Assembly: GCA_040756035.1 (NCBI GenBank) | Contig: JBFLZV010000004.1 | Span: 7,463 to 71,462, forward strand | Length of the DNA: 64,000 nt | From: Pseudomonadota bacterium | GTDB taxonomy: Bacteria; Pseudomonadota; Gammaproteobacteria; SURF-13 | Direction: 5' to 3' | In this document: piece after piece, positions 6,917-50,222 of the stretch | How positions within the stretch are numbered: the first letter of the stretch is position 1 | Layout of the letters: each line of letters opens with the position of its first letter | Translations under genes and position numbers: made by a program | The notes under the pieces: generated by a model | Databases searched by the model: none | The model's input: only the letters and a program-made list of their open reading frames with translations | Told to the model about the DNA's origin: nothing

Positions 6917-7031
6917 CTCACGCAAAGACGCCAAGTTCGTAAAGATTTAAAACTTAAAAGCCGTGAAATATCTCGCCATGATTAAGCCAATATTTTTTAT
7001 ATTATTTTGCGTCTTTGCGCCTTTGCGTGAG
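6917..7031. repeat. Paired inverted ACGCAAAG-type arms around an AT-rich core
   Basis: ctcacgcaaagacgccaag (6917-6935) ... tttgcgtctttgcgcctttgcgtgag (7006-7031). Confidence 0.85.
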
Positions 7032-7055
7032 ATGTTTTTTTTCGAGTCATAACCC

Positions 7056-8249
7056 ATGCTCGATAAAGACCGCTGGCTGTTGCCGGAAGGCATCGAAGAC
7101 GTGCTGCCGTCCGCGGCCGCGCGCTTGGAGCGGCTGCGCCGCGAGCTGCTCGACCTGTTCGGCGGTTGGGGTTACGAGCTGGTGATTCCGCCGCTGGTGG
7201 AATATCTGGAGTCGCTGCTCACCGGCACCGGCAACGATCTCGATCTACAAACTTTCAAGATCACCGATCAATTGACCGGACGCCTGATGGGCGTACGCGC
7301 CGACATGACGCCGCAGGTGGCGCGCATCGACGCGCACCTGCTCAAGCGCGACGCGCCGACGCGCCTGTGCTATTTGGATACGGTGCTGCACACGCGCCCG
7401 GACGGTTTTTCGCGCTCGCGCAATCCGCTGCAAGTGGGCGCCGAATTGTACGGCCACTCCGGAGTCGAGAGCGAAGCCGAAATACTGTGCCTGATGCTGG
7501 AGATGCTGAAGCTCGCCGGCATAGGCGCGGTGCACGTCGATCTCGGTCACGTGGGTATCTTCCGCGGCCTGGCGCGCGCCGCCGGGCTGAACGCCGAGCA
7601 AGAGGCCGTGCTGTTCGACGCTTTGCAACGCAAGGCCAAGGCCGAGATCGAAGAGTTTCTGACGGGCTGGTCGCTCGATGCGGTGCAACGCCGCCGCATC
7701 GTGAGTCTTGTGGAACTCAACGGCGGTGACGAAGTGTTGAGCGACGCGGAAGTCGCTCTGCGCGGCGCCGGTGACGCGGTGCGCGGCGCATTGGACAATC
7801 TGCGCAGCATCGCCGACGCGGTGCGTCGCCAAGCGCCGCAGCAGACTCTCTATTTCGATCTCGCCGAGTTGCGCGGCTATCACTATTACACCGGCGTGGT
7901 GTTCGCCGCCTTCGTGCCGGGCCATGGTCAGGCCATCGCGCAAGGCGGTCGCTACGACGACATCGGACGCGTGTTCGGACGCGCGCGCCCGGCCACCGGT
8001 TTCGGTGCTGACATTAAAACCCTGCTGGCGCTGAGCACGCAGCCTCTGCCTGAGCGGCCCGGCGCTATTTTTGCGCCGTGTGAAAATGACTCCGCGCTGC
8101 AGGCATTGGTTCGGACGCTGCGCGCGCAAGGCGAGCGCGTCGTCTACGCGCTGCCGGGACAAACCGGCGGCGCGCGAGAGGTAGGCTGCGACAGAGTGGT
8201 GAAAAAACAAAAAGGCGTGTGGACGGTAATCAAAACAGAGGAAAAGTAA
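7056..8249 (+). CDS. hisZ: ATP phosphoribosyltransferase regulatory subunit
   Basis: WLLPEGIEDVLP, RADMTPQVARID, ELRGYHYYTG, GGRYD; HisRS-like protein upstream of purA. Confidence 0.93.
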   Translation: MLDKDRWLLPEGIEDVLPSAAARLERLRRELLDLFGGWGYELVIPPLVEYLESLLTGTGNDLDLQTFKITDQLTGRLMGVRADMTPQVARIDAHLLKRDAPTRLCYLDTVLHTRPDGFSRSRNPLQVGAELYGHSGVESEAEILCLMLEMLKLAGIGAVHVDLGHVGIFRGLARAAGLNAEQEAVLFDALQRKAKAEIEEFLTGWSLDAVQRRRIVSLVELNGGDEVLSDAEVALRGAGDAVRGALDNLRSIADAVRRQAPQQTLYFDLAELRGYHYYTGVVFAAFVPGHGQAIAQGGRYDDIGRVFGRARPATGFGADIKTLLALSTQPLPERPGAIFAPCENDSALQALVRTLRAQGERVVYALPGQTGGAREVGCDRVVKKQKGVWTVIKTEEK

Positions 8250-9545
8250 GTGGGTTCTAAAAATGTTATCGTCATCGGCACGCAATGGGGCGATGAGGGC
8301 AAGGGTAAAATCGTTGATCTGCTCACCGACCATGCCACCACCGTAGTGCGTTTTCAAGGCGGGCACAACGCCGGCCACACGCTGGTCATCGACGGCGAGA
8401 AGACCGTGCTGCATCTTATTCCATCGGGTATTTTGCGCGCGGGCGTGTCCTGCCTGATCGGTAACGGCGTGGTGCTTTCACCGCAGGCGCTGTTCGAGGA
8501 AATTAACATGCTGGAGGCGCGCGGCGTGCCGGCGCGCGAGCGCTTGCGTATCAGTGAAGCTTGCCCGCTGATTCTGCCGTGCCACGTGGCGCTCGATCAG
8601 GCGCGTGAAAAGGCGCGCGGCAAGGCGGCCATCGGCACCACCGGGCGCGGCATCGGACCCGCCTACGAGGATAAGATCGCGCGCCGCGCGCTGCGTCTCG
8701 GCGACTTGTTCCACCGCGAGCGTTTCGCCGCGAAGCTCGGCGAGGTGCTCGACTATCACAATTTTGTTCTACAGCATTACTACAAGGCCGAGCCGGTCGA
8801 CTTCCGGCGCGTGCTCGATCAAGCCTTGTCGTTCCAGGATTTGTTGAAGCCGCTGGTTGCCGACGTGCCGGAACTGCTGCACCAGGCCGCGCGGCGCGGC
8901 GAGGGCGTATTGTTCGAAGGCGCGCAGGGCGCTCTGCTCGACGTCGATCATGGCACGTATCCATACGTCACATCGTCCAACACCACCGCGGGCGGCGCCG
9001 CCACCGGCAGCGGCGTCGGGCCGGCGCGCTTCGACTATATTCTGGGCATCACCAAGGCGTACACGACGCGCGTCGGTTCCGGTCCGTTTCCCACGGAACT
9101 ATTCGACGAGATGGGCGAGCACCTGTCGCGGCGCGGCCACGAATTCGGCTCCACCACCGGGCGCGCGCGCCGCTGTGGCTGGTTCGACGCGGTGGCGCTG
9201 CGCCGCGCCAATCAGATCAACAGCGTGTCGGGGTTGTGCATCACCAAGCTCGACGTGCTCGATGGTCTGGATACCATCCGTCTGTGCGTGGGTTACCGCT
9301 GCGCGGGCGCGGAGCGCATTACCCCGCCGGTAGGCGCCGAGGCGTACGCCGATTGCGAACCGATTTACATCGAGATGCCGGGTTGGCAGGAATCCACGCT
9401 TGGCATCACCGATTACGCGGCGCTGCCGCACAACGCGCGCGCCTATCTCAAACGCATCGAGGAAATCGCCGAAACACCGATCGACATCGTCTCCACCGGC
9501 CCGGAACGCGCGCAGACCATCGTGCTGCGGCATCCGTTTAATTGA
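8250..9545 (+). CDS. purA: Adenylosuccinate synthetase
   Basis: [47 protein letters not shown]. Confidence 0.98.
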
Positions 9546-9570
9546 AGGTTTTTTTAAAATTCAAAAAATC

Positions 9571-9694
9571 TAACGCAAAGACGTAAATAAAAAAGTAACA
9601 AGTTGCAAGTAACAAGATAAAAATTAATTTCTATACCTTTTCTTGGAACTTGTCACTTGTTACTTGGAACCGCTTTTTTGGCGTCTTTGCGTTG
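9571..9694. repeat. Nested element: outer ACGCAAAG arms enclosing an inverted heptamer array
   Basis: Outer aacgcaaagacg (9572) / cgtctttgcgtt (to 9693). Inner aagtaac-aagttgc-aagtaac-aag / cttggaa-cttgtca-cttgtta-ctt. Confidence 0.85.
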
Positions 9695-48747: not shown

Positions 48748-49220
48748 GGCGTTACCTATTACTGGCCGTCGCGTTGTGTTGGCTGCCCGCGGCGTGGGCC
48801 GCCGGACCCGAATCGGTGGATATGATCAGCGACAATCCCGCCATCGAGGCGCGCCTCAAGGCGCTGTCGCACGAGTTGCGCTGCCTGGTGTGCCAAAATC
48901 AAACGCTGTCCGATTCGCACGCCGACCTGGCGGTGGATTTGCGTAACGAGATCCGCGAACTCATGGCCAAGGGCATGACCGATCAGCAAGTCATCGATTA
49001 TCTGGTGGCGCGTTACGGCGACTTCGTGCTATTCCGCCCACCGGTCAAGGCGACGACCATTCCGCTGTGGTTCGCTCCGTTTATCTTGGCGGTGCTCGGC
49101 GCGGCGCTGCTGATTCTCTATCTTAGGCGCCTGCCCGCGCGCGTCAAAGACGTTCCGCTCTCGGACGCGGAACACAAGCGCTTGAACAAATTACTCGATC
49201 AAGCGAAAGAGGATACCTAA
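48744..49220 (+). CDS. ccmH: CcmH
   Basis: LRCLVCQNQ, YGDFVLFRP, C-terminal TM. Confidence 0.95.
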   Translation: MRRYLLLAVALCWLPAAWAAGPESVDMISDNPAIEARLKALSHELRCLVCQNQTLSDSHADLAVDLRNEIRELMAKGMTDQQVIDYLVARYGDFVLFRPPVKATTIPLWFAPFILAVLGAALLILYLRRLPARVKDVPLSDAEHKRLNKLLDQAKEDT

Positions 49221-49223
49221 ACC

Positions 49224-50081
49224 ATGTTATTTTGGATTTTGGCGGCCCTCATGCTCGCCGCCAGCCTGCTTATTGTGCTGCCCGCGCTGCTCGGGGAGCG
49301 CGCGCCGCAAACCATCGAGCGCAACAAATTGAACGCGGCGATTTACAAGGATCAGCTTGCCGAATTGGAGGCCGATCTCCGAAACGAAACACTGAGCCCC
49401 GCGCAGTTCGAACAAGCGCGTCATGATTTAGAGCGTAGCCTGCTCGCCGAGGTGACGGACGCCGCGCCCAAGAAGCCGGTGGTCACGACGGCGGTGGCGC
49501 GCAATACGGCCATCGCGGTGGGACTGGCGGTGCCGGTGCTGGCGATAGGTGTCTACTTGCAACTCGGCAAGAGTGACGCGGCGCTGTCGAATCAAACCGC
49601 GCAGGCCACCATGGCCGCCATGAACGGCCTGACGCCGGAGATGATGGCCGAGCGTTTGGCCGAGCGGCTCAAGACCAATCCGCAGGACGGCATGGGCTGG
49701 GCCATGCTGGGACGTTCCTACAGCGTGCTGGGGCGTTTCGCCGACGCCACCGACGCCTACGCCAAGGCGCTGCCGCTGCTCGGCGATGATCCGCAGTTGC
49801 TGGCCGATTACGCCGAGGTGCTGGCGCTCTCCAGCAGCGATCAACGGCTCGCCGGCAAGCCCACCGAGTACTTCGAGAAAGCGCTCAAGCTCGATCCGCA
49901 AAATCAAAAGGCGCTATGGCTGGCCGGCATGGCGGCGTTTCAGCAACAAGATTTCAAAAACGCCGGCGTTTACTGGAAACGTCTGGCCGCGCTGATGCCG
50001 CAAGATTCCGAGGACGCGCAAGTCATCAACCAGCGCATCGCCGATGCCGAGGCGCGCGCCGCGGGCGGCCTGACGCGCTGA
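49224..50081 (+). CDS. ccmI: CcmI/CycH (TPR-containing)
   Basis: N-terminal TM, IYKDQLAEL, GWAMLGRSY, TPR-like helices, KALWLAG. Confidence 0.9.
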   Translation: MLFWILAALMLAASLLIVLPALLGERAPQTIERNKLNAAIYKDQLAELEADLRNETLSPAQFEQARHDLERSLLAEVTDAAPKKPVVTTAVARNTAIAVGLAVPVLAIGVYLQLGKSDAALSNQTAQATMAAMNGLTPEMMAERLAERLKTNPQDGMGWAMLGRSYSVLGRFADATDAYAKALPLLGDDPQLLADYAEVLALSSSDQRLAGKPTEYFEKALKLDPQNQKALWLAGMAAFQQQDFKNAGVYWKRLAALMPQDSEDAQVINQRIADAEARAAGGLTR

Positions 50082-50091
50082 ACGGCGCAGC

Positions 50092-50222
50092 CTCACGCAA
50101 AGGCGCCAAGACGCAAAGACTATAAAATAAAAGCGAGAAAGAAAATTTGTAATTTGGGGCTTTATGGGAAATGTTTTTCCCGCTCATTAATTGATTTGGT
50201 GAATTTTGCGTCTTTGCGTGAG
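50092..50222. repeat. Paired inverted ACGCAAAG-type arms at the ccmI/yfgM junction
   Basis: ctcacgcaaaggcgccaagacgcaaag ... tttgcgtctttgcgtgag. Confidence 0.85.

Follow-up and report, generated by a model that had tools for sequence, protein, structure and literature searches.

Gene-less foldback repeats between genes of a gammaproteobacterial genome and their probable origin in a family carrying a small Cas4-like nuclease gene

Introduction

What are the mirrored arrays of tandem octamers that stand between the genes of several bacterial operons, and where do they come from? The question is raised by a stretch of 64,000 nucleotides (nt) from a gammaproteobacterium of the SURF-13 lineage (GenBank assembly GCA_040756035.1, contig JBFLZV010000004.1, positions 7,463 to 71,462 of the forward strand). 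This whole stretch is referred to here as the window. A first-pass annotation of the window, made from its letters, described paired inverted arms around AT-rich cores and proposed either a REPIN-like non-autonomous family or empty cassettes whose cargo had been lost. It also suggested that the long stems formed in RNA could tune the stoichiometry of operons.

The follow-up analysis leads to a reading that is considered likely: the seven elements of the window are gene-less members of a foldback repeat family whose full form carries a small Cas4-like nuclease gene, and whose copies have spread and are now probably fossil in this genome. The interpretation as empty cassettes was thus probably right in its essentials. 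The combination of nuclease and repeat is present across many bacterial phyla, and no published description of the element was found in the literature searched.

Octamer-armed elements of the window

The window contains 21 copies of the motif ACGCMAAG, compared with 7.0 +/- 2.3 in shuffled sequences, and none of 100 shuffles reached 21. Its arrays form six arm pairs and a solo arm at the seven places described before, all of them intergenic. Each end consists of 2-4 tandem octamers (ACGCAAAG, ACGCCAAG, GCGCAAAG and others), and the cores have 20-98 nt and a G+C content (GC) of 0.15-0.48, compared with 0.605 for the genome. Each of the six pairs forms a more stable fold than shuffled sequences do (z -3.5 to -10.5). 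At gathering thresholds, Rfam gave no family match in the window.

Three of the pairs, to which, like the other three, no strand is assigned, have type A termini (CTC-ACGC...GCGT-GAG). The first fills the DUF2065/hisZ spacer at 6917..7031, with a left arm at 6917-6935, an AT-rich core, a right arm at 7005-7031 and a T-run at 7035-7042; the repeat finder gives 6916-6935/7013-7032 as inverted arms of 20 nt with 90% complementarity. The second, between ccmE and ccmF at 46029..46160, has the perfect 24-nt arms noted in the first-pass annotation (46029-46052/46137-46160, 100% complementary). The third lies between ccmI and a yfgM-like TPR_21 gene at 50092..50222 (50092-50109/50205-50222, 18 nt, 89% complementary). 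The cores of the 6.9-kb and 46-kb elements had been regarded as diverged copies of each other; they have short arm-adjacent motifs in common but no significant BLAST similarity.

Type B termini (A-ACGC...GCGT-TGG) mark two further elements. One occupies the convergent purA/DUF3108 spacer at 9571..9695, where the repeat finder reports inverted arms of 58 nt (9559-9616/9649-9706, 74% complementary) with a second hairpin nested inside. This nested hairpin, at 9593-9665, is built of ACAAGT-type tandem units, a unit family with 24 matches genome-wide, and suggests that one foldback can land in the loop of another. The other type B element, at 20723..20796, separates ilvH and ilvC, both on the minus strand, and consists of a core of 20 nt with a three-unit arm on either side (20726-20749 and 20770-20793). 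The exact-seed repeat finder overlooks this pair, which was established by folding as a 29-pair stem with two G-U pairs and one mismatch. The remaining pair has type C termini (AA-CCGCCAAG...CTTGGCGG-TT) and lies at 23643..23776 in the convergent spacer between a MIF-like gene and a transaldolase gene; its arms of 18 nt (23643-23660/23759-23776) are 100% complementary. The solo arm, CCA followed by three octamers, is located on the plus strand at 21314..21340 (the arm itself at 21317-21340) in the ilvI/ilvH spacer of 77 nt, which also contains a small unrelated hairpin module after the arm.

The neighbouring genes were confirmed by Pfam where this was checked, namely for DUF2065/HisZ-type, PurA/DUF3108, IlvH/IlvC, MIF/transaldolase, CcmE and the YfgM-type TPR_21 gene; ccmF and ccmI are assigned by position only.

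A nuclease gene between the same arms

Open reading frames (ORFs) enclosed between arms, which the first-pass annotation had proposed to list, do occur. The window's own genome (G000; a 2.08-Mb assembly, 60.5% GC, 99.9% complete) contains exactly one locus of the PF13366 family, C38:18085-18436. It lies on another contig than the window and is frameshifted. The gene is enclosed by a type A element (C38:18017-18480) with termini CTCACGCAAAGGCGCAAAGACGCAAAG...CTTTGCGTGAGG and arms CTCACGCAAAG...CTTTGCGTGAG. Its start codon follows the arm by 8 nt, and the catalytic D, E and K residues are intact upstream of the single frameshift. In Nostoc sp. 106C, the identical pair CTCACGCAAAG...CTTTGCGTGAG surrounds an ORF of 125 amino acids (aa) belonging to PF13366/TIGR04256 (GxxExxY).

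The association extends well beyond these two genomes. The same arms surround related genes in Nostoc, Verrucomicrobia, Bacteroidota, Acidobacteria and two sister genera. Among 120 loci chosen by the arm 24-mer alone, seven more have a GxxExxY gene beside the arms, six of them in Acidobacteriota, Bacteroidota, Myxococcota, Verrucomicrobiota and Alphaproteobacteria. Moreover, mirrored arrays of 7-9-nt units stand on both sides of 20-21 of the 24 PF13366 genes in nine other genomes, the unit sequence varying from gene to gene. Every gene seen inside octamer arms in the genomes examined encodes the nuclease of about 125 aa. These observations support the view of the window copies as cassettes without cargo, as the same arms and termini bracket the GxxExxY gene on C38, in sister genera and in other phyla.

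Another arrangement occurs at three loci of other phyla (L005, L076 and L004), in which the GxxExxY gene does not lie within the termini but has on each side an arm facing outward or a complete hairpin. This layout is the one typical of RAYT and Ssn genes.

The full-form protein has about 125 residues and belongs to GxxExxY (PF13366). Its AlphaFold model has a pLDDT of 93, and the nearest solved folds are Cas4 SSO0001 and lambda-type exonucleases, with TM scores of about 0.5. The D, E and K of the nuclease motif are conserved, and matches to Cas4 profiles are weak. A sequence search for solved structures found no relative. On the strength of the model, the protein is predicted to be a minimal PD-(D/E)XK nuclease resembling Cas4 and lambda exonuclease.

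Arms and nuclease inherited together

A tree of 30 GxxExxY proteins relates the arms to the gene. Placed on this tree, the ACGCAAAG arm trait needs 3 changes, compared with 9.2 in shuffles, and none of 500 shuffles reached 3. A clade with 99/95 support unites ACGCAAAG-armed genes of seven phyla, the G000 copy included. The eight genes of a single myxobacterial genome, in turn, have at least six arm types and are scattered over the tree according to their arms. Thus, arm type tracks nuclease lineage rather than host, and gene and arms travel together between genomes and phyla.

The termini follow the same division. Type A termini go with the main clade and type B termini with a second lineage, represented by the genomes G010 and G019; therefore, the type A and type B elements of the window match two nuclease lineages. 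Only the type A lineage still has a gene in G000, and that gene is broken.

Distribution in the genome and among relatives

The genome-wide motif search suggested by the first-pass annotation yielded about 70 arm pairs. By strict criteria, G000 has 74 octamer arrays on one strand and 63 on the other, and strict adjacent pairs occur 42 times in the order A-rich then T-rich and never in the reverse order. The earlier statement that the A-rich arm always comes first is correct in this respect, but the order carries no information on orientation, because such a palindrome reads alike on both strands. With looser pairing, 69 elements are found, about 10 kb in total or 0.5% of a streamlined 2-Mb genome. 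The 42 strict pairs have a median core length of 98 nt, and the median core GC is 0.37. Three terminus types recur: CTC-ACGC (85 ends), CCA-ACGC (37 ends, with TCA and CTA variants) and AA-CCGCCAAG (22 ends). Outside the element, an A-tract lies beyond the left end and a T-tract beyond the right end. A leader-like motif, TTTAAR, is present at 16 of 138 inner arm flanks, compared with 7.0 in shuffles.

Elements lie between tandem genes in 42 cases, between convergent genes in 14 and between divergent genes in 2-3. Nearly all are directly downstream of a gene, and they usually leave only 10-30 nt of the spacer free next to each gene. The cores are mostly unrelated, and some have nested small repeat modules in common. 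One such module, containing GTCATTCTGAG, has 13 copies inside the cores of octamer elements (for instance C12:15524, C26:25110, C72 and C73) and explains much of the mosaic similarity among cores.

Arm 16-mers are counted 107 times in G000 and 1-57 times in 13 of 19 family relatives. They are absent from all four genomes of the group labelled g5 and from 20 of 21 other families of the class, the one family left having a single match. At least 120 species from many phyla have the arm 24-mer, which in most cases forms a pair of this kind. Among these loci, one from Dolichospermum (L050, 5512-5940) repeats three-unit octamer arrays every 81 bp, six times on one strand, and one from Leucobacter (L029, 4672-4751) has a single array of 10 units.

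Another reading would make the elements structures that the host maintains in its RNA, as non-mobile bidirectional terminators, RNase III sites or 3'-end stabilisers. The stems are strong and flanked by an A-tract and a T-tract, two of the window copies stand between convergent genes, the ilvH/ilvC site is filled in three genera, and G000 encodes RNase III, for which the stems are long enough to be cut. However, loops of 20-98 nt far exceed terminator norms, and T-runs begin 3-6 nt past the stem and only at some copies, so that the elements fail as intrinsic terminators; scans for terminators and promoters gave counts equal to those in shuffles. Occupancy is patchy, the arm family at the same junction differs between species of one genus, identical 24-mers with a linked gene cross phyla, and the stems are no better on the transcribed strand. 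This explanation is therefore regarded as improbable. The possibility raised at the outset, that cores would prove unrelated and arms would be ordinary terminators conserved in position, is borne out for most cores but not for the arms, whose positions are patchy among relatives and whose loops are far too long.

Transposases as alternative partners

A close parallel to these elements is found in the REP/RAYT systems, in which a single-copy gene for a small enzyme is flanked by hairpin repeats that are also dispersed as tens to hundreds of gene-less inverted doublets, mostly downstream of genes. The octamer elements resemble them in the same three respects, the enzyme gene, its hairpin repeats and the gene-less doublets downstream of other genes. 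They differ in having a PD-(D/E)XK fold instead of the Y1/HUH fold of RAYT, variable-number tandem octamers instead of an imperfect REP palindrome of 20-40 nt with a conserved head, and a gene that often lies inside the hairpin loop.

If the arms were themselves REP doublets, they would be copied by a genome-encoded Y1 (HUH) RAYT transposase. Their abundance as inverted doublets, mostly at gene 3' ends and depleted between divergent genes, would fit, and G000 has two clear PF01797 genes. Yet these genes, on C30 and C1, are flanked by other repeats (TGACCCC-type and ACGCCTTTA-type) with no octamer array within 900 nt; the arms lack the conserved REP head, consist of variable-number tandem octamers that begin at the ends with CTC, CA or AA and then the first unit, and flank the GxxExxY gene instead. 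Membership in the REPIN-RAYT family is accordingly barely credible, and "REPIN-like" holds as an analogy only. The two Y1_Tnp genes (C30:365-1258 and C1:51279-52259; about 300 aa, RAYT/IS200-like), each with its own short tandem-unit arrays, resemble distinct pairs of repeat and enzyme within one small genome.

Classical miniature inverted-repeat transposable elements, the deletion derivatives of an insertion sequence (IS) that a DDE transposase cuts and pastes in trans, would also have terminal inverted repeats, small size and many copies, and one PF01609 transposase gene is present in the genome. One group of copies could be of this kind: a type C trio (C31:16390-16530, C68:4180-4320 and C34:13050-13190) lies within a palindromic unit of about 135 nt (ACTAAGAGCGTCTAACAAAA...TTGTTAGAGGCTCTAAG) with CTAAG at both ends. 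The outer palindrome of the trio may be an IS5-type miniature element with the octamer hairpin as a passenger. Only this composite has CTAAG at both ends, however, and elements of types A and B show no target duplication; unit number differs between near-identical copies, and no transposase-sized insert was found between such arms in any genome examined. Nor do the arms accompany the one PF01609 gene, so that the search for an associated transposase ended without a link for this gene or for the PF01797 genes. An origin from a DDE-transposase element is considered very unlikely.

Probable derivation and turnover of the gene-less copies

A probable route from full cassette to gene-less hairpin is seen at the trpG/trpD junction. 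Here, G010 has an intact type B cassette, while G019 has a cassette with a nonsense codon, followed by a mini-copy that retains the leader and the first nine codons between full arms. This mini-copy is an internally deleted intermediate. At the same junction in G000 (C24:15870-15935) stands a small hairpin of another unit family, with AGTAATG/AGTGATG heptamer arms.

Near-identical gene-less copies at different loci show recent copying. The copies on C65 and C93 have a core of 84 nt that is 100% identical, although they differ by one unit and have different flanks, and the copies on C31, C68 and C34 form a near-identical trio at unrelated loci. The notion of arms as telomere-like additions at breaks was rejected, given that whole elements with identical cores are found at separate loci.

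These copies also bear on the idea that the arms grew in place, by slippage and hairpin-templated conversion at existing palindromes that later captured genes in their loops, with no movement of a unit. Shifts of unit number between near-identical copies, different arm families at the same junction, unrelated cores and the presence of two unrelated gene families in analogous arms would all fit such growth. It does not predict whole elements with identical cores and A/T-tract flanks at unrelated loci, nor the same termini with related genes in seven phyla, and is judged highly unlikely.

Comparison of the same junctions among relatives shows a patchy occupancy that is turning over. Between ccmE and ccmF, 13 of 15 family genomes have no such insert, the genes abutting or lying about 20 nt apart; the site is filled in G000, and G002 has a decayed copy. 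Within this decayed element (L126) remains a minimal perfect hairpin, CTCACGC-AAAG-GCGTGAG. The self-complementarity of one octamer plus terminus hints, from the sequence, at how arms may start or collapse. Between ilvH and ilvC, octamer elements are found in three genera, including the relatives G001 and G005. The site is taken by hairpins with heptamer arms in G002, G007 and G011, of which two share their genus with a genome bearing an octamer element; no hairpin repeat stands there in five of the genomes compared. Among these genomes, only G000 has the ilvI/ilvH spacer of 77 nt with its solo arm; in the 10 family relatives compared, the gap is 0-6 nt, and the genes sometimes overlap. Similarly, among relatives only G000 has an octamer element at the DUF2065/hisZ and ccmI/yfgM junctions, where other hairpin families occur elsewhere.

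Observations that weigh against the proposed origin

Several findings speak against descent of the window copies from a mobile nuclease cassette, or against parts of that reading. No movement is visible: a look-up with DUF2065 returned 10 public contigs of the same clone from several samples, and these are 100% identical over 1.8 kb, the DUF2065/hisZ element included, which makes them uninformative on this point. No close strains were found: the best match in a metagenome search with CcmE has 67% identity, and the IlvH protein is not on record. No target-site duplication is seen where filled and empty junctions are compared or at the borders of recent type A copies. On the protein tree, a single clade of ACGCAAAG-armed genes is rejected (p-AU 0.0016).

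The link to the nuclease also has its gaps. The genomes richest in arms have no intact matching nuclease, as the gene of G000 is frameshifted and G001 (57 matches, 100% complete) has none. A profile search of all G000 cores with hidden Markov models found no coding remnant of the gene outside C38. Cargo loss is directly documented in G019 only, because gene-less cores keep no detectable trace of the gene. The gene-less hairpins could thus be the primary form. Additionally, the arms are not exclusive to the nuclease, since genes for PF05635 four-helix-bundle proteins occur in analogous arms. Two such 23S_rRNA_IVP genes of G000 (C24:25270-25720 and C49:5950-6410), one with an internal stop, have purine-rich tandem-unit arms on one side and pyrimidine-rich ones on the other (GAGAAAAG-type and GAGTGAGG-type). 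The PF05635 family also has gene-less siblings, because GAGTGAGGAG has 39 matches genome-wide.

As for a function in RNA, stems are no better on the transcribed strand (29 vs 18 elements, p 0.19), and G-U-compatible mismatches divide 26 vs 20 by strand (p 0.46), with no sign of selection on RNA.

A possible mode of spread

The derivation of the elements from nuclease cassettes is considered likely; their mode of spread and any role in RNA are inferred. Copies would spread through recognition of the octamer arrays by the nuclease, probably in the form of a hairpin or a single strand of DNA, comparable to that of NTS by Ssn and of REP by RAYT. Copies would land just past stop codons or in the loops of existing hairpins. 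Their toleration inside operons may be due to the transcript simply folding into a stem of 16-30 bp. This stem could be cut by RNase III or slow down exonucleases, and the earlier proposal of long stems tuning operons is plausible from the folds. As the only nuclease gene of the family in G000 is frameshifted, the family has probably become a fossil there.

A bolder and rather doubtful proposal is that nuclease and octamer-array arms together constitute a new kind of self-propagating element. The nuclease would take one unit per contact on hairpin or single-stranded DNA, its cut would seed foldback copying, with or without the gene, into spacers past stop codons, and each lineage would have co-evolved with its own octamer "word".

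Comparison with other repeat systems

Another close parallel is offered by the Ssn single-strand nucleases of the GIY-YIG type. Their NTS/SRM hairpin repeats stand on both sides of the gene and also occur in hundreds of copies, and cutting of the repeat has been demonstrated (PMC11893778). Both systems place a gene for a small single-domain nuclease between dispersed hairpin repeats, have a specificity that varies from homologue to homologue and are widespread across phyla. The present nuclease, however, is Cas4-like PD-(D/E)XK (PF13366) instead of GIY-YIG (cd10448), its repeats are mirrored tandem arrays around a long loop instead of a single short hairpin, and the element is known from sequence alone.

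Short tandem units have likewise been described in the STRR heptamers of cyanobacteria and Beggiatoaceae, including the TAACTGA repeats, which mostly form direct arrays ahead of start codons and have no linked gene (PMC4679880). They resemble the octamers as intergenic tandem units of 7-8 nt common to distant phyla, and differ from them in that the octamers form mirrored pairs linked to a nuclease gene.

A small ORF in the loop of a long stem is also a feature of the intervening sequences of 23S rRNA. In Leptospira and Coxiella (S23p), such an ORF lies in the loop of a long stem of terminal inverted repeats within a host transcript, and RNase III cuts this stem and so frees the insert from the host RNA. 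The two PF05635 genes of G000, between purine-rich tandem-unit arms in ordinary intergenic spacers, recall this design, whereas the elements of the window lie between protein genes, not in rRNA, and have no ORF.

Long inverted ends of variable-number short tandem repeats around heterogeneous middles are known from eukaryotic FB transposons, and the Correia elements of Neisseria are co-transcribed hairpins cut by RNase III. Both create target duplications. The octamer elements are similar to FB transposons in their tandem-repeat inverted ends and mixed middles, and to Correia elements in being co-transcribed hairpins, but have no relationship to either in sequence or enzyme, and no target duplications are seen.

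Significance

Mirrored tandem arrays of 7-9-nt units are common in the intergenic DNA of bacteria and have had no explanation so far. By tying one abundant family to a widespread uncharacterised nuclease, the present analysis provides both with a testable partner. It also adds a third enzyme fold, after RAYT/REP and Ssn/NTS, to the theme of a nuclease or transposase with dispersed hairpins. The elements split translationally coupled operons (ccmE/ccmF and ilvI/ilvH), break assemblies and seed false ORF calls, and should therefore be recognised by annotators. Should the self-propagating model be true, a word-reading nuclease would explain both the identical 24-mers in dozens of phyla and the genomes littered with mirrored short tandem repeats. 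Provided that the protein does read such words, it could turn out to be a programmable nuclease with specificity for a sequence or a structure.

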